Shown here one piece after another: positions 5,001-62,385 of a stretch of 64,000 bases of DNA. The notes under the pieces are model-generated. The model worked only from the letters and a program-made list of their open reading frames with translations, was not told where the DNA came from and searched no databases. Location: assembly GCA_964016885.1 (NCBI GenBank), contig OZ024744.1, forward strand, positions 59,768,001-59,832,000, given 5' to 3'. Every line of letters starts with the position of its first letter. Position 1 is the stretch's first letter. Both the position numbers and the translations under genes were made by a program. The DNA is from Eledone cirrhosa. Its lineage: Eukaryota.

Positions 5001-5357
5001 GCCAGGGAGCACCTGTTTGGTGAGAGTCTGTCACATGACATTCTTGTCCCCATTTCACCGTTATTCGAACTGTTTAGGTTCGACATTTAAACACTCTTAT
5101 CGAGGATTGGCGAATGTATGGTTACATAACCACCAGTGAATTACTTGTCTCCGGTGGTTTCGTCACTCCACGTGACTTTTGTGTGGCATTATCACGCTGT
5201 AGACGAACCCAAATAAACAAACAAACAAACAGGCAGAAAAAACCCCCAAAATGAATAAGCATAAATTTCATTGTAATGTAGTGTTTGAATGTCTGACTTA
5301 GTTTTCCCTTCCCTTCTCTGTCCGTCCGTTTGTTTTTCTCTTCATTTTTTAATTTTT
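2096..5357 (-). mobile_element. R4/Dong-type RLE non-LTR retrotransposon (TAA family), near full-length, internally deleted and degenerate
   Basis: N-terminal CY..SNP...GYRKRM..IW, RT (RGIFQGD, LLFMDD), CCHC (ETVAHIVSEC) and RLE (RPDLVV...DVACP, IPIVIGALG). (AAT)n follows the 3' end and (TTA)n lies at ~5358-5378. The 5' boundary is approximate. Confidence 0.88.
2936..4513 (-). pseudogene. Reverse transcriptase part of the R4/Dong ORF (disrupted)
   Basis: The 525-aa frame has NYRPIACL, EQKGC, KAFD, IFQGD and FMDD. There is a deletion/frameshift near 4290 and a premature stop at 2936. Confidence 0.88.
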
Positions 5358-5378
5358 TATTATTATTATTATTATTAT

Positions 5379-10262: not shown

Positions 10263-11654
10263 TGTTCTTCTGGTTTTATAATTTCACAAAGTTTTACCAA
10301 TAGAGAGAGAGTCGGTTCCTAATATAGACACAAGACTCTCTCATTGGAATTTACACATCAACTAGGTAGATATGTATGTATGCATGCATGTGTAGATATG
10401 GATGTTATTGTATGTGTGGATGTGTATATTTTGAGTTGTATGTGTGCATGTGTATATGCAGTTATTAGATGAAACATTTTTGGAATGTTTGACATATTTT
10501 TACTGTTCCATTAATGGATTGTACTTGTAGTTTTCTAACTAGTTGTGTTCTTTCTGTTCCTGTGAAGCCTAGCTTCTCAAGATTTGTATTGAGGCAGTTA
10601 CTAACATACCTCAGTGCCCATTTTTTCATCCATGGATTCACTGCGATACTGCTGAGCGACATCCCTGGGTGTGAGTTTTTGATTATCACACAGGGAATAT
10701 CTCTCAAGGAGTTCCTTCCCAACTTTCATGATCTTATCTGTTTCATGCAGATAGACTTACTCGAGAAGCGGGCTCCTACGCTTCGAGGTTCGTAGATGTT
10801 GTCGGAGAGATATGATGCGACATTCAAATGTTGTCTGGACTGATGTTAGGCCTCTGCCTCCCTGCTTACGTTTCAAGTAAAGGAGGTCTATGTCACTGTT
10901 GATGTGGAAGTTTCCGGTGTTGTTCAGTATTTTTCGAGTTCCAACATCAACTGCTCGGATTTCGTCTATCATCCAATTGAGTATTCCAAACGTTGGTGTT
11001 AGGACAGGCACAGCAAACACATTGTGAGCCACTGTTTTGTTTTGCGCAGAGAGTTCCGATGACCAGATCTTTCTTAATCGGGTGTAGTATTCCCTGGTTA
11101 CGCGTTCTTTATTACAGATACCATTATAGGATATGTTCTCATCTATCCCCAGGTATCTGTAGCAGTCCTCATCAGATATCGGTGAAACAGTTAGGCCATT
11201 GATGACAATGTTGCTAGATTGGGTTGTTGTTTTTCCCCGCTTTACAGTCATGTATGAGCATTTATCTTGGCCAAACTCCATTCCTATATCCTTTGAGAAC
11301 GTTGTAACGTTGTAAGATTTTTCTTCATCCCATCCATGTTCTTGGCATAGAGTTTCAGATCGTCCATAAAGAAGTTATGGGTTAGGTTCGTATTTCTGTC
11401 CTCCTGTGAGCCAATGATGTACCCCTCACATTTTTTGAGCAGAAAGGACAAGGGTTTAATGACAAGATGAATAATATCACAGAGAGACTGTTCCCCTTTA
11501 TTAGTGAAAATAGAGTCCCCCCTCTCTGTCTTTAACCTTAGGATAGTAGCCCAAGAAGAAGACAGCTTCTCTATGGCTCTGACAATAATGTCTGGGACTT
11601 TAGCAAGTTGGAGGGCCTCTATCATCCAAGAGTGGGGAACAGAATCGAAAGCTT
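10263..11654 (-). mobile_element. R4/Dong-type TACA family B, 5'-truncated with internal deletions
   Basis: AFDSVPHSW, FFMDDLKLY and GGRGL motifs. Homologous to 60158-62385 and flanked by (TACA)n on both sides in sense orientation. Confidence 0.88.
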
Positions 11655-24185: not shown

Positions 24186-26319
24186 CCCTTTTCACTTGAT
24201 CGTCTGGTGAAGGGACCGTTGAATTGTCCCTTCGGCTGGTCGTCGGCTCTTCTATGAGTATGTCCGAATATACTCTCCGGTTGAGAGTCCCTCCTAGGTC
24301 TCTGAAATCACCAACTGCGTTGGGGAATTTCGTTTTAATGTTTGTGTATTGTTTCTGTACTATTTTTAGCAGTCTTATGTTCGTTGGCGTTTTGATTGGT
24401 GCTGGTATTATGTAGTCGTGCTGTGAAATGTCTGTGTGTTCAATTATGTAAGTCATTAGTTTCTTGTTGTGTGTATTTATTGCCGTGCATTTGTTTTTCT
24501 GGGGGTGGTGTGTGGTTCTGCTATTTTCTTGTCGTTGTTGCTGGGTGTGTGTGTTTTGTTGTTGTGTTTGCGATGTTGGTGCTTGTGGTGGTGGTGTTGA
24601 AGGTGTTGTTGGTGTTGGTGATGGGGTTGTTGCCGGTGGTGATGGTGGTGCTAGTGTGGGTGGTGATGGTGTTGGTGGTGTTGCTGCTGTGAGTCTCTTT
24701 GCAGTAGCCTTTACCCTTTTTTCATTTCTTTCCTCCCTTTTCGAAGGCGACGATGAGCTGCTTCTGCGTTTATGCCTTCTTACGACCTTTTGCCATCCCT
24801 CTCCCACCTCACACTCCATGTCTGATTCTGTGAGGTCGGGGAGGGGTACCAGCTCCACTCTTTTACTTGTTGTTGTTGGTGATGTTTGCACTGGAGTCTT
24901 TGTTGCAGCTGCATTTGGTATTACTGTTGTTGTTAATACTTCCACTGCTGCTGTTCGTGATTTCCGTGGCGTGGGTATGGGTGCCACGGACCTATCGTTC
25001 CTGGTTGCCGCTTGTCCTGTTGCTGGTAGCCGTGGAGCCGGTTTCGGAAGGAGGGGGGTTTTCTCCTTTCTCAGGGTCTTCTCGTTGCAGAAGGCCCTGA
25101 GGTGAGTCTTCGATCCACAGCAAAAGCATTTCGGGCGTTTGCCCTCAACACTTATGGGCAGTTGAGTGCCGTTATCGAAGTCTATCACATCCGGTATAGC
25201 TTCGATGCACTCCTGGTTGGTTTGGATTAACATCTCAATGGAGGTGCCGACCCAATCTTCTCTTACTTTTTTCTGTACTTGCAGTACAGTTGTTTTGTCC
25301 TCGATTCCGACGAGGACAGTCGCGGCCAGCCAAGAAGGGGCCATCTCGGGGGGACGGGGGGGGGGGGGGGGGGGGGGGGGGCGTGGGTCAGTTTGATCCT
25401 CACAATTTTTTCCCCGCAGTAGGAGGGCACCAACACAATTTCCTCGCTCCTTAGGGTCACTAAGGATTGAGCCTTTGCCTCCTGGGGTGTAGCAAAAAGC
25501 ACGTCTACGGTGGCATATTTCTTGCCTCGGGTGATATGCGTTTTCCGCTGCCACACAGACCCTAAGGCTTTTTTGTATTTGAGCCTCTGTGGCTCTTTCA
25601 ACCCTACGGGATTTTTTGCTTACTGTACGGTACGTGACCGTACAGTGCTGTTGGGTTTCGAAAAATTTTTCAGCTGCCTTGCAGATTGCACGGTGTACGG
25701 TTTTCGTCACCATCTTCTTCGCTTCCTCTAATTCCTCATTTGTTATGAGGATGGTTTCCAGGTTCTTTGCGATACCTGCAAACGAGATTGGTTTTTCTTT
25801 GCTGCTGTTGTTGTTATTGTTGTTGTTGTCGTCAGAGCTGCTGTTACTTTTGTTGTTGCTGCAGGTACTACGACTACTGCCGCCGCCGCTGTTGCTGTGG
25901 TTGTTGTTGTTGTTGCTGCTGCTGCTGTTGTTGTTGTTGCTGTTGCTGCTAATGCTGTTGTTGTTTATGCTGCTGCTGATGCTGTTGCGGCTGCTACTGT
26001 TGTTTTCCTTGTCACTGTTGCTGCTGCTGCTGTTATTACGGCTGCTATTGCTATTATTCATGACGTCAGATGAATGAAATGGGTTTTCGTATTTCCCGCA
26101 CACCTTTTTCGTCGTTGTCGTCGTCGTCGTGGAGAAATGTTGCACGCTTTCTACGTGATTTTTCTTTACTGGCGTCGCTTGCGAAAGAGAAGGGAGGGAG
26201 AGAGACACATTTAGAGAAGGGAGGGAGAGAGACAATCTTCTCTCTGCTGTTGTGACGATTGAGGAAGAAGAAGACGGAATGAGTGGGAGTGACCTATGAA
26301 AATTCTTTTTCGTAGCCAT
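24148..26319 (-). pseudogene. Tx1 ORF1 (nucleic-acid binding, zinc knuckle), with compensating frameshifts
   Basis: MATKKNF start and CFCCGSKTHLRAFC knuckle. The true frame for ~25380-25570 is in ORF 25263-25601 (RGKKYATVDVLF), by comparison with the 5596 copy. Confidence 0.8.
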
Positions 26320-26534
26320 GTTTTTTTTTTGTTTAAAATAAATATTGGGCACAAAACCCCAATAGGCGGTTATTTAACCCCGAAGAGCCAAATAACGGGC
26401 AGAAAGACCCCTCTCACGAGGAGGAGGGTGTTTTTGTCTACAATTTGGTTAAAGTTTTAAACAATTTACAATTGTTATAGCGGTCAAAATTTACAATACT
26501 TTACAGAGCCGAGCCTCCGTCAACCATATCATTC

Positions 26535-26572
<38 letters not shown>

Positions 26573-26573
<1 letters not shown>

Positions 26574-26880
26574 TGAGAACTAAAACAATACCAGTGGTTG
26601 TAGGTGCTCTGGGAATGATACCTAAGGGGTCTAATGATTACATATCGCAAATCCCAGGAAACCCGCGTATAGGAGAAATACAAAAGATAGTACTAATGGG
26701 AACTGCCCATATACTAAGGAAGATTCTGTCAATATAAGTACATCACAAGTCTAAACACTAAAGATGCATGTGTGTGTATGTATGTTCTTTCTTGAACATG
26801 GCGGACCTTGTTGTCTCTTGATGTCACTGGTTGTGACTTGGTGATAACTCGTATGAACATAAAGCAAGATAAATGCAACT
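26573..26880 (+). mobile_element. R4/Dong-type 3'-end fragment (another TAA subfamily)
   Basis: Translates IPVVVGALGMIPKG...IQKIVLMGTAHILRKILSI*. (AAT)n lies on both sides. Confidence 0.8.
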
Positions 26881-34340: not shown

Positions 34341-34508
34341 ATATCTTTAATAAACGAAGCCAAATTTTAAATATTTGACTTAATTACTTTATTTTACATT
34401 ACTCCGGAGTAAACAAACCAACCTTCGTACTTCGTCGAGTGCTCCAATCTGCATACTGAGGTGTCGGTAAACAACCAACATATACTCAGAATATATATAT
34501 ATATATAT

Positions 34509-36343
34509 GAAGACAAACATAGAATATTCGAAAATATTCTGTATGTTTATAATAAACATTTCGAAGACCCAATCGCTATAGAATAGAATACGTCACGTAT
34601 TACAATTTGAGATTCTCGATAAAAGCAAGGGAAGTAACCTACGCGTTTCATTCTTATTAGAAATCATCAGGATTACATATCCAGTGCTTTTATCGAGAAT
34701 GACACAGCTAGAGACTTATAGAATACTTAGCTGTGTACAGGAACTGGTTTGAAAGAGCGGTTGCCGGTCCGGCAGAAATTAGAATTTGGATATAATGCTC
34801 TGAAATAGCGAAATATATGTGAAGACAAACATAGAATATTCGAAAATATTCTGTATGTTTATAATAAACATTTCGAAGACCCAATCGCTATAGAATAGAA
34901 TACGTCACGTATTACAATTTGAGATTCTCGATAAAAGCAAGGGAAGTAACCTACGCGTTTCATTCTTATTAGAAATCATCAGGATTACATATCCAGTGCT
35001 TTTATCGAGAATGACACAGCTAGAGACTTATAGAATACTTAGCTGTGTACAGGAACTGGTTTGAAAGAGCGGTTGCCGGTCCGGCAGAAATTAGAATTTG
35101 GATATAATGCTCTGAAATAGCGATATATATGTGAAGACAAACATAGAATATTCGAAAATATTCTGTATGTTTATAATAAACATTTCGAAGACCCAATCGC
35201 TATAGAATAGAATACGTCACGTATTACAATTTGAGATTCTCGATAAAAGCAAGGGAAGTAACCTACGCGTTTCATTCTTATTAGAAATCATCAGGATTAC
35301 ATATCCAGTGCTTTTATCGAGAATGACACAGCTAGAGACTTATAGAATACTTAGCTGTGTACAGGAACTGGTTTGAAAGAGCGGTTGCCGGTCCGGCAGA
35401 AATAAGAATTTGGATATAATGCTCTGAAATAGCGAAATATATGTGAAGACAAACATAGAATATTCGAAAATATTCTGTATGTTTATAATAAACATTTCGA
35501 AGACCCAATCGCTATAGAATAGAATACGTCACGTATTACAATTTGAGATTCTCGATAAAAGCAAGGGAAGTAACCTACGCGTTTCATTCTTATTAGAAAT
35601 CATCAGGATTACATATCCAGTGCTTTTATCGAGAATGACACAGCTAGAGACTTATAGAATACTTAGCTGTGTACAGGAACTGGTTTGAAAGAGCGGTTGC
35701 CGGTCCGGCAGAAATTAGAATTTGGATATAATGCTCTGAAATAGCGATATATATGTGAAGACAAACATAGAATATTCGAAAATATTCTGTATGTTTATAA
35801 TAAACATTTCGAAGACCCAATCGCTATAGAATAGAATACGTCACGTATTACAATTTGAGATTCTCGATAAAAGCAAGGGAAGTAACCTACGCGTTTCATT
35901 CTTATTAGAAATCATCAGGATTACATATCCAGTGCTTTTATCGAGAATGACACAGCTAGAGACTTATAGAATACTTAGCTGTGTACAGGAACTGGTTTGA
36001 AAGAGCGGTTGCCGGTCCGGCAGAAATTAGAATTTGGATATAATGCTCTGAAATAGCGATATATATGTGAAGACAAACATAGAATATTCGAAAATATTCT
36101 GTATGTTTATAATAAACATTTCGAAGACCCAATCGCTATAGAATAGAATACGTCACGTATTACAATTTGAGATTCTCGATAAAAGCAAGGGAAGTAACCT
36201 ACGCGTTTCATTCTTATTAGAAATCATCAGGATTACATATCCAGTGCTTTTATCGAGAATGACACAGCTAGAGACATACAGAATATTTTCGAATATTCTA
36301 TGTTTGTCTTCACATATATATCGCTATTTCAGAGCATTATATC

Positions 36344-37386: not shown

Positions 37387-37440
<54 letters not shown>

Positions 37441-37441: not shown

Positions 37442-39570
37442 TTCTTTTCACCTCTCTTCAACTCTTTGGTTAAACTCGTCCTTTCCAACCATTTCTATTG
37501 CATTTATACCCATATCTTCTGCTGTATATTGCAACAATTATTCGTCACTGTTTACCAAATATTCTGCAACCGTTCTCCTTTTACTACTTAGACAATGATC
37601 CCTCTGAGTACAGAGCATTTGGAAATCCCAAATTCCATACCAATGTCACTGCTGCATATCTGAACTGTTTTAACCGGTGTGTCTATTTGGTTTCCAGACT
37701 TCCCAAACAGATTTAGTCATCCAGAAACATAAGCTGGTTTACGAATGACCCTTGCTTTCCACATTGATAGTCCAGTTATATTTTTCTGAGTGTGAGTATT
37801 ATAGGTATCAGTGCTATAACAAATAGTAACAGTGAGAATGAGTCCTCTTGGAAGACACCTCTTTTAATTGCTACCTCACCCAGAAATCATTGCTTGAAGA
37901 TAACTTGGTTCTTCACTTTGGCATGCTGTTCAGCAAAAACTTTCCGATGTTGTCAGCAATGCCTCTACAGGCATTCACCAATCCAAGAATAGGGCACCAT
38001 ATCATATGCCTTCTTAAAGTCAATCCAGACCATAGACACGTTTAAGGGATATTTCTTACAATGCCCCAAAACTGTCTTATCAATAACAAGGAGATACTTG
38101 GTACCCTGGACAGCATTCCCTTTACTTCTATCTTTCATCACAAACGTTGATCTCCCTGTAACTATCCTGGTGGGGACTGCACCTCTCTGGACACATTCAT
38201 TCAAATGTGTTGTAAGTCTTTCGTGTACTACATTGCATCTTTTCAACCAAACGTCGTGAATCCCATCTGGTCCAGAGGCTTTCCAGTTTGGTATCTTGGC
38301 TACTTGATCCTTCACATCGCCTGTGTTTATGGTAATATATTCTTGTATATTTCCTCCTCACAATTCTGTCTTGATGGTGTCTATCCACTTGGCATCCTTT
38401 CTATGACTCATACTGTTTTCCCATATCCCATTCCAGAACTCCTTGGCCTTATCAACATTAGGGATAGCGTCTTTCCTATTCCCCTTATTTCCTTCCAAAC
38501 TGCAGAAGAATTGTTTTGTATTATTTTGGGACAATCGATTTTCCTCGAATTGTTTATTTCTATTTATATATCTCTTTATCTTCTGGCTTTTCAAAAGAAT
38601 TCCCTGTTTTAGCTGTATGGAATCCATTCTTCCATATTTTATGTCTTGTCTAGTCCTTCTCAATCAGCTTTTTTTTCATTTTACTTAGACCCTGCCTTAA
38701 CCTCATTATGGCATTTTCAATACGTCTTTTCCACTATGGTTCTTTTGTCTTACTCTGCTTAATGCTCGTCAGTCCCGTTTGTTCCTCTACAAACAGTGCA
38801 ACAGCTTGGATAAGGTTCCTAGTTTGTCTTCTGTCTAGTTGTGTTGTATGACAGCATTGAAATCGTTTATTTCTATTTGTAATTGAAATTACAAGAAAAT
38901 AAATTTCAATTATCATCCTCCTATCTATCCTTCATTGGGATTATTTTGGGCCATTCATCAAATCCATGAGTTGTCTACGTAACTCAAGTGACTCATCATC
39001 CAAGTGACCTCCTTTTGCATTACCATTCTCATCCTCAGTTATACCAGGTTTCAATGAATAGCACTCCTCTTCGGCAGCCCTAACAGTCCTATCACAATTC
39101 CCTGTTCCCGCGACCCATTTTCCTCTCTACCTTCAACTGCTTTAGCTTCTGCTCTAACCTCCTTTTGTTATTCATCTGCCGGTTCCGTTAAGTGTTCACT
39201 AATCCGAGATATTTCTACCTCAGTTAACCAGCCCTTCCTCCTAATATCCCTCACTTGATTCATTAGTTCACTTTCAGACATATCAAAAATTCCAGAGTAC
39301 GTCGTCCTACTCCACGACTTCCTTCCAGCTTTGTTCTTTCATGACATTCAATCAGTGTAACATACTCTTTCTTCGTCCATTTGTGTCTATCTACGCGCAC
39401 ATTTTGTTGCTGAGGACTCCAAACATGCCTGGTGAGGGACTTTGAAAGTGATTGGTTCTACCTCATTCACACCGTTAACTATTTCATTATTGTTTTCCAT
39501 CATGATATCATGAGAGTCGTTTGTAGGGCTTTCCCCTCCTCACTTGTGTTTTTATTCTGACACAGTCTCT
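37441..39570 (-). mobile_element. Old, degenerate R4/Dong-type element (5' half and RT)
   Basis: Motifs KIPNWKASGPDGIH, WIDFKKAYDMVP and EFWNGIWE, with many stops and deletions. It abuts (CTA)n at ~37387-37440. Confidence 0.8.
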
Positions 39571-44994: not shown

Positions 44995-47900
44995 GTTCTT
45001 CTGGTTTTATAATTTCACAAAGTTTTACCAATAGAGAGAGAGCCGGTTTCTAACATAGACACAAGACTCTCTCATTGGAATTTACACATCAACTAGGTAG
45101 ATATGTTTGTATGCATGCATGTGTAGATATGGATGTTATTGTATGTGTGGATGTGTATGTTTTGAGTTGTATGTGTGCATGTGTATATGCTTTGTATCTG
45201 TACATGTGTATATGCAGTTATTAGATGAAACATTTTTGGAATGTTTTACATATTTTTACTGTTCCATTAATGGATTGTACTTGTAGTTTCCTAACTAGTT
45301 GTGTTCTTTCTGTTCCTGTGAAGCCCAGCTTCTCAAGATTTGTATTGAGGCAGTTACTAACATACCCCAGTGCCCCAATAATCACAGGTATAAATCTGAA
45401 GGTGTAATCAGTGTGGAGTATCTACAGATTTCTCATCAGTTCTGCATAAATATTCTCCTTTTCACTAATTTTTGATATTATATTGGCATCTTCTGGACAG
45501 CTAACTTCCACTACTGTTCATGCATTCTTTTCCTTGTCCCATATCATAAAATCTGGTCTGTTATGCCTGCATTTTAATGGGGTTTTTACTGGAACATTCC
45601 TGCAGTACTTTTTCATATTATGTTCGTGGATGGCACAGCAAACACATTGTGAGCCACTGTTTTGTTTCTTAATCGGGTGTAGTATTCCCTGGTTACGCGT
45701 TCCTTATTACAGATACCATTATAGGATATGTTCTCATCTATTCCCTGGTATCTGTAGCAGTTAAGCCATTGATGACAATGTTGCTAGATTGGGTTGTTGT
45801 TTTCCCCCGCTTTACAGTCATGTATGAGCATTTATCTTGACCAAACTCCATTCCTAAATCCTTTGAGAACGTTGTAACCAGGTCAAGATTTTTCTTCATC
45901 CCATCCATGTTCTTGGCATAGAGTTCCAGATCGTCCACAAAGAAATTATGGGTTAGGTTCGTATTTCTGTCCTCCTGTGAGCCAATGATGTATCCATCAC
46001 ATTTCTTGAGCAGAAAGGACAAGGTGTTTAATGACAAGATGAATAATATCACAAAGAGACTGTCCCCCTGAAATATACCTCTGCGATATTTTATTTTTTC
46101 AGTGAAAATAGAGTCCTCCCTCCCTGTCTTTAACCTTAGGATAGTAGCCCAAGAAGAAGACAGCCTTTCTATGGCTCTGACAATAATGTCTGGGACTTTA
46201 GCAAGTTGGAGGGCCTATATCACCCAAGAGTGGGGAACAGAATCGAAAGCTTTCCTGTAGTCTAGCCAGACTGTAGCCATATTCCTCCTAAGTTGTTGCA
46301 CCTCCGACATCGCAGTTTTGTTGATTAGGAGTTGTTCAGCACATCCCCAAACCCCTTTCTTTCCAACTGCTTGTTCATCTGTGATGATGTTATTATTTTC
46401 ACAGTGTTCTTGGAGGAATAGGTTCAGGCAGGATGTATACATCCTATACATCAGGTTCTGGCATGCAATGGGTCGTTAGATTTTTGCCAAGTGGGTGTCT
46501 TTGTTCTTGGGGACCAGTAATGTTTGTGCTAATGTCAACCATTCTGGTATAAGTGTATCTCCCTTAAGAACTTGTTGGTAGAGGTCAGTAAGATACCTCC
46601 GACAATCATGTCTCTTCCTGGTGCTTTCTTATCTTGGAGTTTTTCTATCACAGTCTCAAGGGTACCCTCATTTATTTCGTATGTTTTTGTTGTAGTGTAG
46701 GTTTTGGGATTTCTCTTAGCCCCACTGCATCTTGGTTGAAATTCTTCTTTCCACCCCATATTTTGCTCCAAAAGGAATCTATGTCTTTCTGGGATGGGGC
46801 CTCAGTGACACTTATTACTTTGCCCTTCATATCTCTATAGACTGATGTTTGGTTTCGTCTGAATCTTTTATTAAGCACTTTTCTCTCATCTACCTTCTTC
46901 AGGTATCGGCGTTTTTCGCTAACAGCCCTCAATTCTTGTTTGAGGGTGATCAGCTTATATTGGAGAGTTCTGGTTTTACTGTTACCAAACATTGTCTCTA
47001 TTTTATTTTTCACTCGTTGTTGGTGAGGAGTGAGGTTTGTTTGTGTTTGTTTGCATGTAAGGATCATTGTCACATATCCTATGGTTTTTCGTAGGTCAGC
47101 AATTTTTTTTTCTATTTTAGTTATATGTGATGGTATTTTTGGTGGTGCTTTGTTCTTATTAATATCTCTGCTATCACCAAGATAGTGCTTCACTGTTGTT
47201 GCTAGGGCATATAAACAGGCGTTGATTTGCCAAAATGTTGGGGTTTCTATCCGTCGTAAATATTCATCCCCTATTTCGTCAATAACACGTAATATTTCAT
47301 TATTTGGTTTTTTATTAAACATTGTCGTTTTAATACGTTCAGCAAGAAAGATATTTATACATGAGTTAATTTCTCTCTGGAAGATTTCGTTTGGGGGAAA
47401 TTTCAATTGTTTATACTTTTGATTATCATTATCGATAGTATTTTCCACAACAGTCGAGGTAGACTCGGATGGTACACGTGGTGTCAAATTTCTTCGATTA
47501 TTATTATTATTTCTTCGATTATTATTATTATCGATACTGTTTTCCCCAGCATTCGAGGTAGACTTAGATGGTACAGGTAGTGTCAAGTTTCTTACAGGCA
47601 TAGTTGTTTCAAGGCGTTGTTCGACCTGGCTGCTAGGAAGTCTAGTAGCATGGCGACCTGTAGCACGTGTTGTTGATCCCATGTTCGTTGTGGGGGACTT
47701 ACAATTAATAATATTTAACTTATTTTTACGTTCAACAAACGTCGCTTGTTGGCGTAATTGTTTCGCTGTGAAATAATTTAGCTCTGGGTGCATTTCTTCC
47801 GAGTGTAGCTTCATTCTGTTCACATAGCCAATGGAGGGATTGTTTTTTGGCCATTTTATAACAATTAAATAAATCATTATTAAGTTCGCAACTCCTAGAG

Positions 47901-48229
47901 AAATGCGATTTATAATTTAGGTTTCTTCTGTAGCTACAACTGAATAAAGTTTGTTTACCTTTCTTGTTGTTTGTCTTCGATAATTCCTTAATTTTGTTGT
48001 TGATGTTGTGTTCAGCCATGCTGTTTGTAGTAAATCCTTGTAAAATGAATTATGTATTTAGTCGGATATCTCTACGAATTCGAATAAAAGGTGTCTTCAG
48101 AAGGGATAGTTAGAAGAATAACCAGTTATTCAACATGACTGTAGTTGTGGCATTACTGTCGGAGATAGTATTCATCTTAAATTTAATAAATAGTCTCCCA
48201 CGCCAAAATATGCGACTGATCGCGTTGAC
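44995..48229 (-). mobile_element. R4/Dong-type TACA family B copy retaining 5'UTR and ATG (48019), with frameshifts and internal deletions
   Basis: Motifs GYVNRMK, TAKQLRQQA, KAPGRD, WLDYRKAFD, FFVDD and RPDF. (TACA)n lies at both ends. Confidence 0.9.
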
Positions 48230-48480
48230 TGTATGTATGTATGTATGTATGTATGTATGTATGTATGTATGTATGTATGTATGTATGTATGTATGTATGT
48301 ATGTATGTATGTATGTGTATTTTATCTTCAACCCATGAAGCTGTCTCTCATCTCTAACCCTATCGTTACACCACCCCACACTCATTACACACACCTTATT
48401 CCGACCATTTCTTATCTTTGTTACTTTCTCGCGTCATATGTAAAAGCGCCTAGTTTCTTTGACAAACAAAAATATAGTGG

Positions 48481-50125: not shown

Positions 50126-50821
50126 TAGCCCCGACAATGAACATATTAAAAGTTACAGCAATGTGGAAGACATACACATGCATAATATGAAAGAGTACTG
50201 GTGGAATGTTCCAGTCAAAACCCCCCAAAAATGCCGGCATAACAGACCAGATTTTATGATATGGGACAGGGAAAAGAAGGCATGCACAGTGGTGGAAGTT
50301 AGCTGCCCAGCAGATGCCAATATAATATCAAAGATTAGCGAAAAGGAGAATATCTATGCATAACTAATAAGAAATCTGCAGATACTCCACCCTGACTATA
50401 CCTTCAGATTTATACCTGTGATTATTGGGGCACTGGGGTATGTTAGTAACTGCCTCAATACAAATCTTGAGAAGCTAGGCTTCACAGGAACAGAAAGAAC
50501 ACAACTAGTTAGGAAATTACAAGTACAATCCATTAATGGAACAGTAAAAATATGTAAAACATTCCAAAATTGCTGTATCTAATAACTGCATATACACATG
50601 TACAGATACAAAACATATACACATGCACACACACAACTCAAAACATACACATCCACACATACAATAACATCCATATCTACACACACACATGCATGCAGAC
50701 ATGCAGACATAATCTACCTTGTTGTTGTTGTATAAATTTCAATGAGCGAGTCTTGTGTCTATGTTAGAAACCGACTCTCTCTCTATTGGCAAAAATTTGT
50801 GAAATTATAAAACCAGAAGAA
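50126..50821 (+). mobile_element. R4/Dong TACA family B 3' fragment (RLE plus 3'UTR)
   Basis: EYWWN, RHNRPDF, VEVSCP. Followed by (TACA)n. Confidence 0.88.
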
Positions 50822-51855
50822 CATACATGCATACATACATACATACATACATACATACATACATACATACATACATACATACATACATACATACATACAT
50901 ACATACATACATACATACACACACACACGTGACCTACTCTCCTACAAAATTTGAAGAACGTAACTGTTTTTGCACTTGACATCATTCGATCGTGTCTGGC
51001 ACGTGAATCTCTCAGTAAAATCTCCCCCTCCCTTCACGCATGAACTCCACCTGTCTCTCTCATCTTTTGGATCATTGGCTTCTGTCAAATCGCACAATTT
51101 TGTTGTGAGTTGATGAAAATCTCTGACCCATACTCTATCAACTGAAGTGCATCCAGCTAATGGTACTCCCCTCTCACCCTCACCCATCTCTCTCTCTCCC
51201 CCCCCCCCCCCCTCTCTCTCTCTCTCTCTCTTGTGTGCTACAAGGGTGGTTTCTGATGTCCGCATCTTTAGTTTATACACCAATGGTCTACAGTAAAGTG
51301 GCCATCACCTCCAACGGCGTCTACTTCGATGAAATATATGACGCCAATATACTTAGTTTTGATTTTCGCGCAACACATCTGGGGGCTACTTAATTTATGC
51401 ATGTTGGTCCTTAGAATATTACACACACATACACACACACACACACACGCACACACACACTCACACGTACGTGCACACACATACACACACACACATAAAC
51501 AAACACACACACACACATATATATATATATGTATACACACACATACACACATATATATATATATATGTGTACACACATGCACACATACATACACACACAC
51601 ATACATACATATACATACAAACATACACACACATACCGACATACATACATGCATTAATATATGCATTAATACCTACCTACATACATACACACATGCATAT
51701 ATATATACATTACATACATACTTTAATACATACATACATACATACATACATACATACATACATACATACTTTAATACATACATACATACATACATACATA
51801 CATACATACATACATACATACATACATACATACATACATACATACATACATACAT

Positions 51856-54800
51856 CCTTCGACCAAATCGCAATTACAACCGTTGTATACAGTGGAGCTA
51901 CGAGCTTAACAAAGAATTATATGAAGCATACAAACAATCTGAACCCCAAAAGTTCGGTTTTATGCAAAGGCTAAAAACTTTATGGAACTCCAAACACCCA
52001 GAATTAGACTTTTCTCCAAAGCATCTAAATGAACAGGCAAAACGTATCATTAGATGTAAATTGATACATCTAACGGAATCGAGTGATACTACAAATACAG
52101 CCCTTGTAGACAACCACCCCACCTCCACTGACAGACAAAGAGAATGGCCGGCTAAATCTAACAGTGAACAGCTCACCAACAATTTTGCTGAAATCCATCC
52201 CACTTCCACTGAAGAACAGCGAGAAAGGTCAGCTGACTCTAGTAGTAAGTGTCACCACATCAACAACGAGGCTGCAATTCATGACTCTACTGAACACACA
52301 GAGCACCAAAAACTTGTGGACACCCTACAAGTGATATGGAACGATATGTTTCAAGAGATACACAGCCTTAATGTGAGTGACAGACCATACAACACTAGAG
52401 TCAGTAAAGAACCCACTAAATTGGAATTGGAAGCGGTGAACGAAATAGCTGGCAATTATCTGAAGGCTATACGATCTAAAGGTGTAGAAACGACATTTGA
52501 AACGCTCAATGTTTTGTTATATGTTTCAGCTGTCACATTGCTATCATATAACACACATCTAAAACCACGCAATCAAGATACAAACAGAAAGCCTGAACCA
52601 GTGTGGATGCGAAATTTAAAAACCAAAATTTTGTCCCTGAGACGAAGTATCTCACACATCGCAGTCGTTATGAAATGCAACATAGAGAGAAACTTCACAC
52701 GACACCAGGAAGACCTAAAGAAAAAGTTAGAGAGACGATTTGGAGATACCAAATTTAAAACTTTGAACTCCAAATTACACCAGTTGAAACAACAACTCAC
52801 AGCTACAACAGAAAGACTAAAATATAAGTCAACAGCACATAAACGACAAGTGCTAAATAGATTGTTTGCCAGAGATCCTAAATCAGTTTATCGCAGCTTC
52901 GGTGGCAAAAGCTCAATCCCTGTAAACGACACCCCTTCAAAAGAACAGGTTGAGAACTACTGGAGATCTGTATGGGAAACGGATGACGGATTCAACAGAC
53001 AAGCTAATTGGCTAAAACAACTGGAACAGGACTACTGCCAACATGTCCAGACAAAACAATATGACATAGATGGGTCAATACTGGAAACAGCTCTACAGAA
53101 AATGTCGAATAGGAAATCGCCAGGCCCAGACCTCATTACAGGATACTGGTTGAAGAATTTCACTTTCTATCGGCAAGATCTCATACGGCTGTTTACAGAA
53201 ACCATTAAGGGCACACAAGAACTGCCCAGATGGTTATCAACTGCCACTACTCTCCTCATTCCCAAAAATAGCCAAACCACCCTTGCTAAAAATTACCGCC
53301 CAATTGCCTGCCAAAACATCATGTATAAATTATATACTGGGTGCCTTAACCTGTTCTTACAGGATCACTGTGCTACCAACAACATCATAACACCTGAGCA
53401 AGCTGGTGGAAAGAGGGAGGTGCGGGGTTGCATAGATCACCTACTAACTAACAAAATGATTCAGGAAAAAACAACAAAGAATCGCAGAAACATGACTGTC
53501 CTGTGGTTGGACTATCAAAAAGCATTTGATAGTGTACCTCATGGGTGGATTATTAAGGCTTTACAGTTAGCTAAAGTCCCACAACCATTAGTAGCTGCTG
53601 TTGAACGCCTGACCAAGAACTGGTACACCAATTTGATCCTTAGAGGTGAGAAGGAGCAGGTTAAGACCGATAGGATACATTACCAGAGGGGCATCTTTCA
53701 GGGTGATAGCTTGTCAGTACTACTCTTCGTTCTCTCACTGACTCCACTATCTTACCTACTCAGGAAACAAGGTGGACAAAGAAGTGGGCCCAGAAGTATC
53801 TCCCATCTTTTCTTTGTTGATGACCTGAGGTTGTATGGGCCAAATATCAATGACATCAAGAAACAATTGGACCTCATTACACAATTTTCAACCGACATCA
53901 AAATGAAATTTGGTGAGTCCAAGTGTGCATATTTGGCAGTAAAACGTGGAAGAGCTGTGCCCTCCTCTAGAAATCTAGATATGAACGGCCTGACAATACA
54001 ACCTCTGCAGTCAGGTGACAACTACAGATATCTTGGACAGGATGAGAATGTCAGATATGATGGACCCATAAATAAGGAGAGAACCAGAACTGAATACCTC
54101 AGAAGAGTAAAGAAAATATGGTCATCAGAACTGTCAGCATACAACAAATACATTGCCCACAATACCTATGCTGTGCCAATTCTAACGCCAACATTTGGCC
54201 TACTGAACTGGTCATTGCAAGAACTAAGTGAGATGGATGTTAGAACTCGTAAACTTCTCAGTGTTACTGGGAACTTTAACATCAATGGTGATGTGGATAG
54301 GCTATACTTCTCACGCAAGGAAGGTGGCCGGGGTCTAAAATCAATATTAACAACATATGAGACCCGGATAGTAACACTGAAGCAACACCTTCAACAGAGG
54401 AAAAAGGTTGGCGACCATCTTGCTCAGGTTTATGAGCATGAAAAAAGAAATATCATTAGAATAGCGACTGATCTGGAGGAGAGATATGGAATAAAGCCTG
54501 ATATAAATCTCTCACCCAGAGAAATCGGAAGATCCTATTCAATGTTCAAACAAGAAAAAAAAATTGACCAATTTACAGAGAAAGTTGTGCATGGATACTT
54601 GAGGCGTAAAACACAGACCATAGAGGGGATAAACCACTCAAAAAGCCTGGCATGGAGTTCCGACAAGTTTATGACATCACACCTTGAGGGATATCTCTAT
54701 GCAATACAGGAACAAGAACTCCCTACCAAATATCTGCTGCACAAAAGAGGAGGGCCAGCAGCTGACAATAAATGTAGGCTATGTAAAACAAAGATCGAGG

Positions 54801-55345
54801 ATGTAAGCCACATTGTTGCCAGCTGCGAAAGAATGTCATCTCGCTACTACCTCCCCATGAGACACGATGGGATAGCTAGAACTATCTGGAACGCACTTCG
54901 GAAAACAAAATTAACAACAAACGAGGAAGAATATATTGAGACAGATGGCACTAAGGAATACTGGTGGAACCTGAAAATAAAAACTGCCACCAAATTAAAG
55001 CACAACCGGCCTGATATTGTAGTTTGGGACCACACATTGAAAACGTGTTCTGTTGTGGAGATCAGCTGCCCACTTGATGTAAACGTTGTCAGAAAAATAC
55101 AGGAGAATGAGGACATCTACGGACCATTGATGAGGAGCTTACAAATCCAGTATCCAAGATACACCTTTAGCTTCATACCCATCATTATTGGTGCTACGGG
55201 TTATATACCAACCCGCTTGGACCAAAGTATGACCGAACTTGGATTTGCGGACAAAAAGCGCAGCTCCCTAAATCATAGTCTACAAATGGCTGCGATAGCT
55301 GGCACCTTCAAAATATGCAAAACATTCTTGCGATTCAAGGGATGA
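51856..55345 (+). CDS. RT-CCHC-restriction-like endonuclease polyprotein (~1160 open codons, native start missing)
   Basis: Motifs KSPGPD, NYRPIAC, WLDYQKAFD, RGIFQGDSLS, FFVDD, CRLC...SHIVASC, RHD and RPDIVV...VEISC. The first ~175 aa of the called 1338-aa ORF are microsatellite read-through. Confidence 0.9.
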
Positions 55346-55426
55346 CAATTTCTTTTCTTTTACAACCTTGCCACCAGGAAGGTGGCCGGTCAAAAAAATA
55401 TACTCGAAATTAAGAGAAAGAGAAAA
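51856..55426 (+). mobile_element. R4/Dong-type TACA family A, long young copy lacking only the 5' end
   Basis: (TACA)n on both sides, a single open frame and an ~80-bp 3'UTR. Confidence 0.93.
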
Positions 55427-55464
55427 CATACATACATACATACATACATACATACATACATACA

Positions 55465-56044
55465 TGATGGCTGCCTCCACGCCATCGAGTATGGCCATTG
55501 CACGATATATCATTATTAATAATTATTAATTAATACTATGGGTTATTTATTAATTAATTCTTGGGCGGTGAATTGGCAGTATCGGTAGAGGGTCGGACGC
55601 CATGCTTTCCAGCATAGAGTTACGGCCCTTGCCATTCTGAGTTCAAATCCCGCCGAGGTTAACTTTGCCTTTCATCCTTACGGGGTCAATAAAATAAAGT
55701 ACCAGTAATGTACTGGGTATTTGCTGGCCTTGTGCCAATAGTAGAAACAATTATTAAGTAATTCTATCGTGCAATGCCTGTGCGTGAAGATATTTTTTAA
55801 AGTGAGGAAAGACTGTGCACTGAGCCAATCCCACTCTCTGAGCGACAGTAGCTATAACCCGAAAAGAAGAAAAGATCAACATCATCGGTAACTACTGAGC
55901 CGCAGGTTTTATATCGGAGTTATCCCAGTTTCCTGAGTTGCCTTCTCCTAGAAGAATGCCCTGACAAAGGCTAGGGGTCCTTCACTCCCAGTGGTTTAAC
56001 CGCGCGATCGGGTGTCCAGCCCGACTATTTCTATGTCCCTGCGC
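55465..56044 (-). mobile_element. Short non-autonomous RTE derivative (5'UTR-like segment plus RTE 3' end), interrupted by a SINE
   Basis: Its 3' end GGCCATACTCG...GCAGCCATCAT(GTAT)n matches the RTE ends. It shares AGCCTTTGTCA..TCTAGGAGAAGG.AACTC with 56500-57095. Confidence 0.7.
55562..55752 (+). mobile_element. tRNA-derived SINE (well-preserved copy)
   Basis: TGGCAGTATCGG A-box, GAGTTCAAATCCC B-box and conserved core. Confidence 0.88.
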
Positions 56045-56107
56045 ATATATACATACATACATACACACACATACATTTATACATACATAAGTACATACAT
56101 ACATACA

Positions 56108-56411
56108 TTAGGAAATTACAAATACAATCCGTTAATGGATCAGTAAAAATATGTAAAACATTCCAAACGTTTTGCATCTAATAACTGCATATACACATGT
56201 ACAGATGCAAAGCATATACACATGCACACATACAACTCAAATCATACATATCCACACTTACAATAACATCCATATCTACACATGCAGACATGCAGACATA
56301 ATCTACCAAGTTGATGTTGTGTAAATTCCAATGAGTGAGTCTTGTGTCTATGTTAGAAACCGACTCTCTCTCTATTGGTAAAACTTTGTGAAATTATAAA
56401 ACCAGAAGAAC
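56108..56411 (+). mobile_element. R4/Dong TACA family B short 3' end
   Basis: Matches 50508-50821. (TACA)n on both sides. Confidence 0.88.
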
Positions 56412-56499
56412 ATACATACATACATACATACATACATACATACATACATACATACATACATACATACATACATACATACACACACACATACCTACATAC

Positions 56500-57095
56500 A
56501 TGGCGGCTGCCAACTCGTTTTCGAGTACGGCCACTACTTTATATGCATGTAGTAGAACCCCTACCGATGCGCTGAACGAGTGTGACTTTTTAATCCAGCC
56601 AGCGACTTGAAAACTCTGGTACAAACACTACACTTGTGACAATTATTGTCACATAGTGCTGGGCCCATGGTACCATGTGACGACAAGTGCAGAGAGATCT
56701 CCAGATATAAAGCAATCCCTGTGCCGTGAAGCTTTTATAGTAAGCAAAGGCACTGCACAAAGCCAGTCCTACTCTCTTAACCAAGATGATATTTACAAGT
56801 CAACATCATTGGATACCATCAGGGTTGCAGGTGTTATATCAGAGTTTTCCTTCTCCTAGAATTCTGCCTTGACAAAGGCTAAGGGGTCATCTCTCCCGGT
56901 GATTTAGGATGGCCATTGACTCTTAAGAGGTCCTTTGCCCTTTGACAGGTTTTGTTTTTAGTCCTGCAGGATGTCCAAAGTCACCCTCCTCACCAAGAAA
57001 CCTTGGTGGGGTTGCCAGTTCAGTCGCCAACGACACGACCATGAGTCAGGTTGTACTGGGATACATGTTACCAGTAGCACCAACTGGTGACCTGA
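56500..57095 (-). mobile_element. Internally deleted RTE (5'UTR, last zinc finger and 3'UTR)
   Basis: The minus strand encodes HKCSVC../FKSLAGLKSHTRSAHR*, like KSLAGLKSHIRATHI* at 15.75 kb. It has the RTE 3' motif and (ATGT)n at both ends. Confidence 0.78.
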
Positions 57096-57212
57096 CATAT
57101 ACACACATACATACATACATACATACATACATACATACATACATACATACATACATACATACATACATACATACATACATACATACATACATACATACAT
57201 ACATACATACAT

Positions 57213-59211
57213 ACATAGATCACCTACTAACTAACAAAATGATTCAGGAAAAAACAACAAAGAATCGCAGAAACATGACTGTCCTGTGGCTGGACTATCA
57301 AAAAGCATTTGATAGTGTACCTCATGGGTGGATTATTAAGGCTTTACAGTTAGCTAAAGTCCCACAACCATTAGTAGCTGCTGTTGAACGCCTGACCAAG
57401 AACTGGTACACCAATTTGATCCTTAGAGGTGAGAAGGAGCAGGTTAAGACTGATAGGATACATTACCAGAAGGGCATCTTTCAGGGTGATAGCTTGTCAG
57501 TACTACTCTTCGTTCTCTCACTGAATCCACTATCTTACCTACTCAGGAAACAAAGTGGACAAAGAAGTGGGCCCAGAAGTATCTCCCATCTTTTCTTTGT
57601 TGATGACCTGAGGTTGTATGGGCCAAATATCAATGACATCAAGAAACAATTGGACCTCATTACACAATTTTCAACCGACATCAAAATGAAATTTGGTGAG
57701 TCCAAGTGTGCATATTTGGCAGTAAAACGTGGAAGAGCTGTGCCCTCCTCTAGAAATCTAGAGATGAACGGCCTGACAATACAACCTCTGCAGTCAGGTG
57801 ACAACTACAGATATCTTGGACAGGATGAGAATGTCAGATATGATGGACCCATAAATAAGGAGAGAACCAGAATTGAATACCTCAGAAGAGTAAAAAAAAT
57901 ATGGTCATCAGAACTGTCAGCATACAACAAATACATTGCCCACAATACCTATGCTGTGCCAATTCTAACGCCAACATTTGGCCTACTGAACTGGTCATTG
58001 CAAGAACTAAGTGAGATGGATGTTAGAACTCGTAAACTTCTCAGTGTTACTGGGAACTTTAACATCAATGGTGATGTGGATAGGCTATACTTCTCACGCA
58101 AGGAAGGTGGCCGGGGTCTAAAATCAATATTAACAACATATGAGACCCGGATAGTAACACTGAAGCAACACCTTCAACAGAGGAAAAAGGTTGGCGACCA
58201 TCTTGCTCAGGTTTATGAGCATGAAAAAAGAAATATCATTAGAATAGCGACTGATCTGGAGGAGAGATATGGAATAAAGCCTGATATAAATCTCTCACCC
58301 AGAGAAATCGGAAGATCCTATTCAATGTTCAAACAAGAAAAAAAAATTGACCAATTTACAGAGAAAGTTGTGCATGGATACTTGAGGCGTAAAACACAGA
58401 CCATAGAGGGGATAAACCACTCAAAAAGCCTGGCATGGAGTTCCGACAAGTTTATGACATCACACCTTGAGGGATACCTCTATGCAATACAGGAACAAGA
58501 ACTCTCTACCAAATATCTGCTGCACAAAAGAGGAGGGCCAGCAGCTGACAATAAATGTAGGCTATGTAAAACAAAGATCGAGGATGTAAGCCACATTGTT
58601 GCCAGCTGCGAAAGAATGTCATCTCGCTACTACCTCCCCATGAGACACGATGGGATAGCTAGAACTATCTGGAACGCACTTCGGAAAACAAAATTAACAA
58701 CAAACGAGGAAGAATATATTGAGACAGATGGCACTAAGGAATACTGGTGGAACCTGAAAATAAAAACTGCCACCAAATTAAAGCACAACCGGCCTGATAT
58801 TGTAGTTTGGGACCACACATTGAAAACGTGTTCTGTTGTGGAGATCAGCTGCCCACTTGATGTAAACGTTGTCAGAAAAATACAGGAGAAGGAGGACATC
58901 TACGGACCATTGATGAGGAGCTTACAAATCCAGTATCCAAGATACACCTTTAGCTTCATACCCATCATTATTGGTGCTACGGGCTATATACCAACCCGCT
59001 TGGACCAAAGTATGACCGAACTTGGATTTGCGGACAAAAAGCGCAGCTCCCTAATTCATAGTCTACAAATGGCTGCGATAGCTGGCACCTTCAAAATATG
59101 CAAAACATTCTTGCGATTCAAGGGATGACAATTTCTTTTCTTTTACAACCTTGCCACCAGGAAGGTGGCCGGTCAAAAAAAAATATACTCGAAATTAAGA
59201 GAAAGAGAAAA
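57213..59211 (+). mobile_element. R4/Dong TACA family A, 5'-truncated within RT (open frame to 59128)
   Basis: Near-identical to ~53431-55426. (TACA)n on both sides. Confidence 0.93.
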
Positions 59212-59303
59212 CATACATACATGCATACATACATACATACATACATACATACATACATACATACATACATACATACATACATACATACATACATACATAC
59301 ACA

Positions 59304-60003
59304 TACCAAATATCTGCTGCACAAAAGAGGAGGGCCATCAGCTGACAATAAATGTAGGCTATGTAAAACAAAGATCGAGGATGTAAGCCACATTGTTGCC
59401 AGCTGCCAAAGAATGTCATGTCGCTACTACCTCCCCATGAGACACGATGGGATAGCTAGAACCATCTGGAACGCACTTCGGAAAACAAAATTAACAACAA
59501 ACGAGGAAGAATATATTGAGACAGATGGCACTAAGAAATACTGGTGGAACCTGAAAATAAAAACTGCCACCAAATTAAAGCACAACTGGCCTGATATTGT
59601 TGTTTGGGACCACACATTGAAAACGTGTTCTGTTGTGGACATCAGCTGCCCACTTGATGTAAACGTTGTCAGAAAATACAGGAGAATGAGGACATCTACG
59701 GACCATTGATGAGGAGTTTACAAATCCAGTATCCAAGATACACCTTTAGCTTCATACCCATCATTATTGGAGCTACGGGTTATATACCAACCCGCTTGGA
59801 CCATTGTATAATTCAACTTGGATATGCGAACAAAGAGCGCAGCTCCCTAATTCATAGTCTACAAATTGCTGCGACAGCTGGCACCTTCATAATTTGCAAA
59901 ATATTCGTGCGATTCAAGGGATGACGATTTCCTTTCTTTTACAACCTTGCCACCAGGAAGGTGGCCGGTCAAAAATATACTCGAAATTAAGAGAAAGAGA
60001 GAA
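59304..60003 (+). mobile_element. R4/Dong TACA family A 3' fragment (CCHC-RLE, frameshifted)
   Basis: Homologous to ~54724-55426. (TACA)n on both sides. Confidence 0.9.
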
Positions 60004-60157
60004 CATACATACATACGTACGTATCTACGTACGTACATACATACATACATACATACATACATACATACATACATACATACATACATACATACAAGCACAC
60101 ATACACCTTACATACGTACATACATACATGCATACATACATACACACATACATACAT

Positions 60158-62385
60158 AAGCAGCTGGAAAGAAAGGGGTTTGGGGATGTGCTGAACAACT
60201 CCTAATCAACAAAACTGCGATGTCGGAGGTGCAACAACTTAGGAGGAATATGACTACAGTCTGGCCGGACTACAAGAAAGCTTTCGATTCTGTTCCCCAC
60301 TCTTATATGATAAAGGCCCTGCAACTTGCTAAAGTCCCAGACATTATTGTCAGAGCCATAGAGAGGCTGTCTTCCTCTTGGGCTAATATCCTAAGGTTAA
60401 AGACAGAGAGGGAGGACTCTATTTTCACTGATAAAATAAAATATTGCAGGTGTATATTTCAGGGGGACAGTCTCTCTGTGATATTACTCATCTTGTCATT
60501 AAATCCCTTGTCCTTTCTGCTCAAGAAATGTGAGGGATACACCAGGAGGACAGAAATACGAACCTAACCCATAATTTCTTTGTGGACGATCTGAAACTCT
60601 ATGCCAAGAACATGGATGGGATGAAGAAAAATCTTGACCTGGTTACAACGTTCTCAAAGGATATAGGAATGGAGTTTGGCCAAGATAAATGCTCATACAT
60701 GACTGTAAAGCGGGGAAAACCAACGACCCAATCTAGCAACATTGTCATCAATGGCCTAACTGTTTCACCGATATCTGATGAGGACTGCTACAGATACCTG
60801 GGGATAGATAAGAACATATCCTATAATGGTATCTGTAATAAAGAACGCGTAACCAGGGAATACTACACCCGATTAAGAAAGATTTGGTCATCGAAACTCT
60901 CTGCGCAAAACAATACAGTGGCTCACAATGTGTTTGCTGTGTCTGTCCTAACACCAACGTTTGGAATACTCAATTGGACGATAGACGAAATCCGAGCAGT
61001 TGATGTTGGAACTCGAAAAATACTGAACAACACCGGAAACTTCCACATCAACAGTGACATAGACCGCCTTCACTTGAAACGTAAGCAGGGAGGCAGAGGC
61101 CTAACATCAGTCCAGACAGCAGTTGAATGTCGCATCGTATCTCTCCGACAACATCTACGAACCTCGAAGCGTAGGAGCCCGTTTCTCGAGCAAGTCTATC
61201 TGCATGAAACAGATAAGATAATGAGAGTTGGGAAGGAACTCCTCGAGTGATATTCCCTGTGTGATAATCAAAAACTCACACCCAAGGATGTCGCTCAGCA
61301 GTATCGCAGTGAATCCATGGATGAAAAACTGCATGCTTATCAGCAAAAAATCATGCATGGATATGTTGCCAGGAAGCTCCAGAGTGAGAGTAATATAGAT
61401 AAGGAAAGTAGTCTATCTTGAACCAACAACTGCTATATGGGCTCCCACTTTCAAGGATACGCTTTTGCAATCAAAGAACAGGAGATTAACACGAAATACC
61501 TGATTCACAAAAGAGATAGAGATGCAAGCAAAACACCTAGATGTGATAACAAGTGCAGACTCTGCAGAACTACCATCGAGGATATCACCCATGTCATCAG
61601 CAGCTGTCCAAAGATGTCATCGCGGTACTATCTACCTATGAGGCATTATGTAGTGGCCAAAACACTGTACAATGCAGTTCGTAAAAAAGATAGCCCCGAT
61701 AAAAAGCTACATTAAAAGCTACAGTGGAAGACATCCATGTACATAATATGAAAGAGTACTGGTGGAATGTTCCAGTAAAACCCCCAATAAAACCCCCAAT
61801 AAAATGCAGGCATAACAGACCAGTTATTATGATATGGGATAGGGAGAAGAAAGCATGTACAGTAGTGGAAATTAGCTGCCCAGCAGATGCCAATATAATA
61901 TTAAAGATTAGTGAAAAGGGGAATATTTATGCAGAACTGATGAGAAATCTGCAGATACTCCATCCTGATTACACCTTCAGATTTATGCCTGTGATTATTG
62001 GGGCACTGGGGTATGTTAGTAACTGCCTCAATACAAATCTTGAGAAGCTAGGCTTCACAGGAACAGAAAGAACACAACTAGTTAAGAAATTACAAGTACA
62101 ATCCATTAATGGAACAGTAAAAATATGTAAAACATTCCAAAGACTTTGCATCTAATAACTGCATATACACATGTACAGATACAAAGCATATACACATGCA
62201 CACATACATCTCAAAATTTACACATCCCCATATACAATAACATCCATGCATATCTACACATGCATACATACATATCTACCTAGTTGATGTTGTGTAAATT
62301 CCAAATGAGAGAGTCCTGTGTCTATGTTAGAAACTGACTCTCTCTCTATTGGTAAAACTTTGTCAAATTATAAAACCAGAAGAAC
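60158..62385 (+). mobile_element. R4/Dong TACA family B, 5'-truncated and degenerate
   Basis: KAFDSVPH, IFQGDSLS, VDDLKLY, CRLC..THVISSC and VEISCP, plus the family B 3'UTR. Confidence 0.9.

Follow-up and report, generated by a model that had tools for sequence, protein, structure and literature searches.

Can a retrotransposon choose a four-letter microsatellite as its insertion site, or does such a repeat come to surround it in some other way? This question is raised by a stretch of 64,000 nucleotides from Eledone cirrhosa (assembly GCA_964016885.1, contig OZ024744.1, positions 59,768,001 to 59,832,000 of the forward strand), referred to here as the window. An initial annotation of the window, made from the letters alone, described a 12-kb train formed by two families, A and B, of R4/Dong retrotransposons, which carry a restriction-like endonuclease (RLE), and proposed that they insert into (TACA)n. 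In this study, we find that TACA targeting is real and element-specific, and that it extends beyond the window to a clade with two four-letter targets. The elements do not represent a new kind of system; they represent a new target within the known R4/Dong type.

Families A and B and their flanks

All eight copies listed in the initial annotation are present, according to both a self-comparison of the window and a comparison with natural full-length copies, and TACA lies on the sense strand in 8/8. TACA at both ends, which had been claimed for nearly all copies, was found in 6/8, with 7/8 at the 5′ end and 7/8 at the 3′ end. A 5′ junction was scored when at least 14 of 16 positions matched TACA within 12 bp upstream, and a 3′ junction when at least 10 of 12 matched within 4 bp downstream. 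At random points in twenty 10-kb stretches of the genome (200 kb), the chance rates of these rules are 0.8% (5′), 2.3% (3′) and 0.3% (both). The failures are the 5′ junction of the B copy at 50126, with a degenerate ATAC/ATAG flank, and the 3′ junction of the B copy at 60158, which is followed by ACAT only. In the train itself (50126-62383), TACA tracts separate the units, whose order is B, spacer, A, C, B, D, A, A, B; the non-coding units C and D and the non-element spacer had been overlooked. The 5′ truncation ascribed to the copies does not extend to the B copy at 44997, which reaches both ends of the full-length element and has internal deletions. The features are as follows.

50126..50820, plus strand: family B, 5′-truncated, last ~690 nt (RLE end and 3′ untranslated region), 91% identical to the full-length B in locus L173
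50821..50919, plus strand: (TACA)n tract
50920-51725: non-element spacer of ~800 bp
51726..51855, plus strand: (TACA)n tract that flanks the first A copy upstream
51856..55425, plus strand: family A, 5′-truncated at about nt 652 of 4222, 99.5% identical to the intact copy in L124
55426..55465, plus strand: (TACA)n tract
55466..56045, probably minus strand: non-coding repeat C
56046..56107, plus strand: degenerate (TACA)n tract
56108..56409, plus strand: family B, 5′-truncated, last ~300 nt
56410..56499, plus strand: (TACA)n tract
about 56500..57095, probably minus strand: non-coding repeat D, left end fixed, right end variable, TACA at both
57096..57213, plus strand: (TACA)n tract
57214..59210, plus strand: family A, 5′-truncated, nt 2228-4222, open frame from residue 533, 99.4% identical to an intact copy
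59211..59303, plus strand: (TACA)n tract common to two A copies
59304..60000, plus strand: older family A copy, 5′-truncated, nt 3521-4220, frameshifted, 95.6% identical
60001..60157, plus strand: compound (TACA)n tract
60158..62383, plus strand: family B, 5′-truncated from about nt 1891, open reading frame (ORF) broken, 3′ flank ACAT only
44997..48229, minus strand: family B, both ends, internal deletions, TACA either side (TGTA at 48230-48316 on the plus strand)
10266..11654, minus strand: family B, 5′-truncated, TACA either side

The genome searched for further copies comprises 3.0 Gb in 1796 contigs; from the 896-5544 candidates that each BLAST search gave, the 30-40 best were analysed, a selection that favours young copies. 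The full-length family A element is 4222 bp long, with a 5′ untranslated region of ~630 nt and an ORF of 1169 aa. The searches returned 964 candidates with its 3′ part and 896 with its 5′ part, and of 40 loci inspected over 7 kb each, 17 contain an intact ORF, with pairwise identities of 99.6-100%. These intact and near-identical copies elsewhere in the genome agree with the earlier suggestion that family A is young and may have an active master. The two young A copies in the window are not candidates for that role, because both are 5′-truncated and because the copy at 51856, although open to a stop at 55345, lacks a start codon and the catalytic lysine of the RLE. An asparagine replaces K1091, the first lysine of the KX2KY motif, which is named as catalytic in the available text of PMC5678591. 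Family B, ~4.1 kb at full length, is older than family A. Its copies are 85-98% identical to the copy in L173, the searches gave 5544 and 1810 candidates, and no intact ORF was present among 19 full-length starts in 20 loci, the longest being 638 aa. A third TACA-flanked family, with ~70% DNA identity to A, was seen at L019 (2070-2925) and in the upstream flank of L084.

Across the genome, with duplicate loci removed and misses retained, (TACA)n adjoins the 5′ junction in 78/84 family A and 69/87 family B copies and the 3′ junction in 67/70 and 64/67, against the backgrounds of 0.8% and 2.3%. The initial annotation had allowed that 5′ flanks might prove mostly non-repetitive, with TACA as a 3′ tail only; the 5′ flanks carry TACA genome-wide, even when truncated copies are taken alone (A 49/54, B 34/49). 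The repeat is not chosen for its abundance, because (AT)n and (AC)n, with 4.0% and 0.9% of the 200 kb of random genome in perfect runs, are far commoner than (ACAT)n, with 0.26%; (AAT)n occupies 0.08%. The 3′ phase is also fixed: ACA starts 53/53 flanks of young A copies, ACAT starts 51 of them, and C stands at position 2 in 64/65 B flanks. On the other side, CA directly precedes full-length A in 26-27 of 29 copies. Microhomology at truncated 5′ junctions is modestly raised (mean 1.8 vs 0.8 nt, 31/38 scored), a value biased by the way alignments end.

Families with another target in the same genome provide a control. Family E, which was located by a search with a protein from a TAA-flanked branch, is a canonical Dong-type family with an intact protein of 1216 aa, 29% identical to that of A; its copies are ~99% identical to one another and build trains of their own (L341-L370). 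TAA adjoins 30/30 of its 3′ and 26/30 of its 5′ junctions, and TACA adjoins 0 and 1, respectively. Conversely, TAA was found at 0/84 5′ and 0/70 3′ junctions of A and at 2/87 and 0/67 of B. Repeat choice is thus family-specific within one genome, a double dissociation of E from A and B. The window holds a fragment of E and also a broken family, F, as an in-window control for a TAA-flanked element of the Dong type.

26571-26878, plus strand: family E fragment between TAA runs
about 2089-5356 and 6598-7280, minus strand: family F, broken Dong-type element, (TAA)n at both ends

Co-oriented trains occur genome-wide. An A, B, C or D neighbour lies within 400 bp of 97/128 insertions and of 12/300 random windows, and the orientation of neighbours is as in the window in 166 cases and otherwise in 11; part of this sample comes from searches that favour these families, though not their neighbours. 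In the upstream flank of L085, TACA spacers separate three head-to-tail repeats of the last ~150 nt of B. The non-coding units are numerous (2258 candidates for C and 3251 for D; loci L301-L340), and the C copy in the window carries a SINE-like (short interspersed element) insertion at ~55540-55756. In D, TACA follows the variable right end in 38/43 full and 33/46 truncated copies, which suggests that D has a polarity opposite to that of A and B and may be moved by another mobiliser. Read on the minus strand, C and D presumably resemble the 5′ untranslated region of an RTE element; a search for their autonomous partner found none. An RTE family with TATG tails was considered as the seed of the tracts but gained no support, since the tail of the RTE next to L138 is (GAT)n.

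The tract before the insertion

Whether TACA is a target or a tail can be judged where the tract is impure. At compound tracts, the 3′ flank of A departs from pure TACA after 5-9 nt and resumes the local variant seen upstream (L091, L094, L096, L097, L109, L110 and L112). Non-pure 6-mers common to both flanks number 152 in 54 young A copies, compared with 35 ± 15 in shuffled pairings (p = 0.0002), and 64 in 61 B copies, compared with 36 ± 11 (p = 0.01). The two flanks of one insertion carry the same local variants, and therefore the (TACA)n tract existed before the insertion and is not a tail.

The two sides of the insertion are not equal in every family. In young A copies, the perfect run has a median of 51 bp upstream and 23.5 bp downstream (p = 9e-7), and the asymmetry occurs in full-length (49 vs 20, n = 21) and truncated copies (51 vs 25, n = 33) alike; it is weak in family E (41 vs 24.5, p = 0.07), and the runs of B do not differ (17 vs 15, p = 0.14). 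The excess in A would fit an upstream footprint of the protein and would equally fit a variable duplication within the repeat. A duplication of 21-25 bp fits 3/25 sites (0.8 expected, p = 0.03), several sites permit at most 7-12 bp, and the repeat hides the target-site duplication.

Protein and relatives

The protein supports the assignment to R4/Dong made in the initial annotation, since a single ORF encodes a reverse transcriptase (RT), a zinc knuckle and a C-terminal RLE, without an apurinic/apyrimidinic endonuclease (APE). Pfam detects RVT_1 and zf-RVT and no APE family. The knuckle has the form CX2CX8HX4C, and the RLE has the motif set RH, PD, E, catalytic K and Y. All 17 intact A ORFs keep the catalytic residues that were checked: D662, C980/C983/H992/C997, R1009/H1010, P1059/D1060, E1075, K1091 and Y1095. 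An AlphaFold model from a 100-row alignment (mean predicted local distance difference test score 88.9) places an N-terminal three-helix domain, a disordered linker, RT, knuckle and RLE in this order, and its best fold matches are R2 target-primed reverse transcription (TPRT) structures. The three-helix domain is confident at residues 22-74, and a zinc finger was not seen in the N-terminal sequence. R4 elements have a helical, Myb-like N-terminus and no N-terminal zinc fingers. The protein of A is 30% identical to an unnamed B. mori protein (P0076) over 98% of its length (E 7e-151); its best R2 sequence match, in a different database, has an E value of 5e-29.

The closest named relative of A is a protein of Argonauta hians, 56% identical over the protein and 66% in the RT. 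Other relatives came from metagenome contigs, of which 80 of at least 422 confirmed loci were used, with the ends of 35 inspected by reading and the others labelled automatically. Among the matches listed, L221 is full length, 45% identical to A, and has TACA at both ends; like A and B, its 3′ end is purine-rich and is then followed by ACAT. Further relatives are flanked by (TACT)n, at both ends in L223, at the 5′ end in L222 and at the 3′ end in L227 and L230. These are distinct families, 43-65% identical to one another and 43-44% identical to A. Where the 3′ end is visible, most listed loci of ~30% identity have (TAA)n.

The RT tree (IQ-TREE in quick mode, rooted on RTE) contains 32 rows drawn from 123, plus E and the outgroup, and its support values, like those of the second tree, are SH-aLRT (Shimodaira-Hasegawa approximate likelihood ratio test) or SH-like only. 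L230, L291, L292, L293 and L164 were excluded from the RT trees for short RT cover. A clade of 12 rows with an SH-aLRT of 99 unites A, B, L221-L223, L227, the Argonauta protein and five unnamed proteins; its sister is a TAA-flanked locus. A FastTree of 121 rows, from which L102 and L084 are absent and whose root is invalid, recovers the same split with 43 rows at 99. In the RT tree, which includes no named sequence from R4, Dong or Rex6, A and B group among TAA-flanked elements and the unnamed B. mori protein. Its 23 labelled rows are explained by two changes of target class, and the likely direction in the sub-lineage of A and B is from TAA to four-letter repeats. At about even confidence, we propose that a sub-lineage of R4/Dong that occurs in several unrelated hosts gave up (TAA)n for four-letter targets and later diverged into (TACA)n and (TACT)n by single-base changes read through the repeat-recognizing part of the protein, that A is currently active, and that TAA and TACA sisters coexist.

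Other repeats occur at R4-type relatives in separate small clades, seen on the 3′ side only: (CT)n at L256 and L261 and (AG)n at L262. The TAA-type relatives L228, L244, L247, L259 and L263, not A or B, have by eye a tRNA-like head directly after the repeat. In the window, a decayed R4-type RT fragment at 37606-38663 (minus strand), 22-46% identical to A and E, ends close to 37387-37440, a (TAG)n/(CTA)n run, and possibly marks a third target class. According to the initial annotation, Rex6 targets (CTA)n. The window also holds an RTE-type element at 20990-26373 (minus strand) with APE and RT, a long low-complexity upstream ORF and TAA runs near both ends, a partial copy of it at 577-1706, and tandem arrays at 16756-18431 (35 bp x 48) and 34499-36285 (312 bp x 5.7) whose units are 98-99% identical.

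Mechanism, rival explanations and known systems

We consider it probable that (TACA)n is recognized by the A/B protein, which would nick the TGTA strand at a fixed phase before insertion by TPRT. According to this mechanism, a single protein would recognize a pre-existing tract. Nicking by the RLE and TPRT are inferred from R2 biochemistry, and the N-terminal three-helix (Myb-like) domain, the RLE or both may read the repeat, largely upstream of the nick. Each insertion would leave two usable tracts, so that later copies would land beside earlier ones and co-oriented trains would build. The sub-lineage of A and B would likely have exchanged (TAA)n for the four-letter repeats (TACA)n and (TACT)n.

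Homology of the RNA might guide the insertion instead: read-through transcripts with ACAU 3′ ends would pair with a loosely nicked TGTA strand, where priming would follow, and the resident repeat would be perpetuated. This explanation accommodates the invariant ACA at the 3′ junction, the TACA downstream of every donor copy and the presence of the unrelated units C and D in the same tracts, and it also predicts the split of TAA and TACA between E and A/B. However, at compound tracts the flank soon matches the local variant, which leaves little repeat that derives from the RNA; the target tracks the protein tree across hosts; and RLE elements are generally site-specific through their protein, according to the accessible portions of PMC5678591 and PMC3636483. 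We therefore regard guidance by RNA as unlikely. A more improbable origin for the flanks is that the elements insert near-randomly and make TACA themselves, through a reverse-transcribed tail and, at the 5′ junction, a duplication or an addition of repeats. The perfect runs beside young A copies are longer than the majority of the 27 background runs, which measure 12-72 bp and mainly 12-20, and the 3/25 sites compatible with a duplication give a weak hint in this direction, but the site-specific variants common to both flanks speak against it, as do the higher-order tracts L109 and L112, to which no pure run was added, and the many copies that lie within tracts of several hundred bp. Passive enrichment or an assembly artefact, in which copies insert anywhere and survive or are mis-joined at repeats, could be imagined in a genome that is very rich in microsatellites and whose contigs break at such repeats. 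It is largely refuted and scarcely credible, given that each family has one strand, phase and repeat type with copies 99.6-100% identical, that neither (AT)n nor (AC)n, both far commoner, is used alone, and that E picks the still rarer TAA.

Several observations weigh against recognition of the repeat by the protein, or against the history proposed for the clade. The control with family E does not distinguish protein recognition from annealing of an RNA tail. No orthologous empty site was obtained from public contigs at L117 and L107, where repeats were skipped and family copies swamp the signal. TACA is absent from 18/87 5′ junctions of B, some of which are internal breaks caused by other insertions. 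The random stretches contain one clear old B copy (80% identity), and there TACA adjoins the 3′ end only; the loci behind the junction counts are best hits, which favour young copies. For the N-terminal domain, the Atlas lead is a Rap1 Myb (score 0.85), a lead only, and a fold search with the isolated domain, in a low-confidence model, gave no match. The in-clade contigs L224, L225, L226, L231 and L241 end before the flank, with no repeat visible, and the TACT contigs, each probably one collapsed contig, derive from three records whose identifiers are nearly adjacent, possibly from one host. Finally, the root of the RT tree is one long RTE branch.

Among known systems, Dong is the nearest in kind: A and B share with it the single ORF with RT, CCHC knuckle and RLE and a microsatellite on either side. 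They work like Dong, but they are not Dong proper, because Dong, DongAg and DongBg target TAA (PMC3812793, as far as its accessible text goes) and A and B, which form a separate RT clade, target (TACA)n. Dong also has a 5′ ribozyme of the hepatitis delta virus (HDV) type, according to the portion of PMC3774820 at hand, and none was found in A and B by a search that lacked a positive control. A self-cleaving ribozyme of this kind has been shown for R4 too. Rfam gave no ribozyme hit in three loci, and our own descriptor found none in A, B and L221-L223 and nothing convincing in four TAA-type loci; an alignment of the 5′ ends of A, B and L221-L223 did not yield a convincing common motif. The ACAY microsatellites targeted by WaldoAg1, WaldoAg2 and WaldoFs1, of the R1 clade, include ACAT (PMC3812793) and thus the target of A and B, but Waldo is an unrelated lineage that uses an APE, whereas A and B have an RLE without an APE; the common target would be convergent. 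R2 (9nl3, 9dou, 9nl2 and 8gh6) gives the best PDB matches in both sequence and fold and serves as the model of the mechanism, but its identity is 15-20%, and it has N-terminal zinc fingers and targets 28S rDNA. Togen, a NeSL-related element in (TG)n, and some HERO families are RLE elements on microsatellites as well (PMC4640811, accessible part), but they belong to other clades, and the repeat of Togen is a dinucleotide.

The claim that a tetranucleotide target is new holds in part. No RLE or R4 element with a tetranucleotide target was found described, and searches of open full texts brought up no R4 element that targets TACA or TACT, although Repbase, Dfam or other surveys may include one. 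On the other side, ACAY was known for the APE-type Waldo, and Dong-R4 families of octopuses have already been catalogued: in O. vulgaris, 51 Dong-R4 consensus sequences cover 92.7 Mb, with five recently active families of 1129 insertions and a mean length of ~4.2 kb (PMC13282606), and the O. bimaculoides library includes a full-length Dong (PMC9115989). The searched portions of text and supplement of the former and the accessible text of the latter give no target site for these elements. Some of these families probably have A and B as their orthologues.

The way in which RLE elements change their target has long been in question, and R2 is almost the only element in which it has been studied. 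With A (TACA) and E (TAA), one genome offers intact proteins whose simple targets differ, and TACT relatives add a further target. The tools for site-specific insertion could be extended by a compact enzyme of 1169 aa whose insertions fall in a non-coding, multicopy repeat. For the genome of E. cirrhosa, the finding explains part of the layout, in which thousands of copies lie in co-oriented trains within one class of microsatellite. If the proposed history is true, the TAA and TACA sisters in one genome would be a natural series in which to map target change in RLE retrotransposons.

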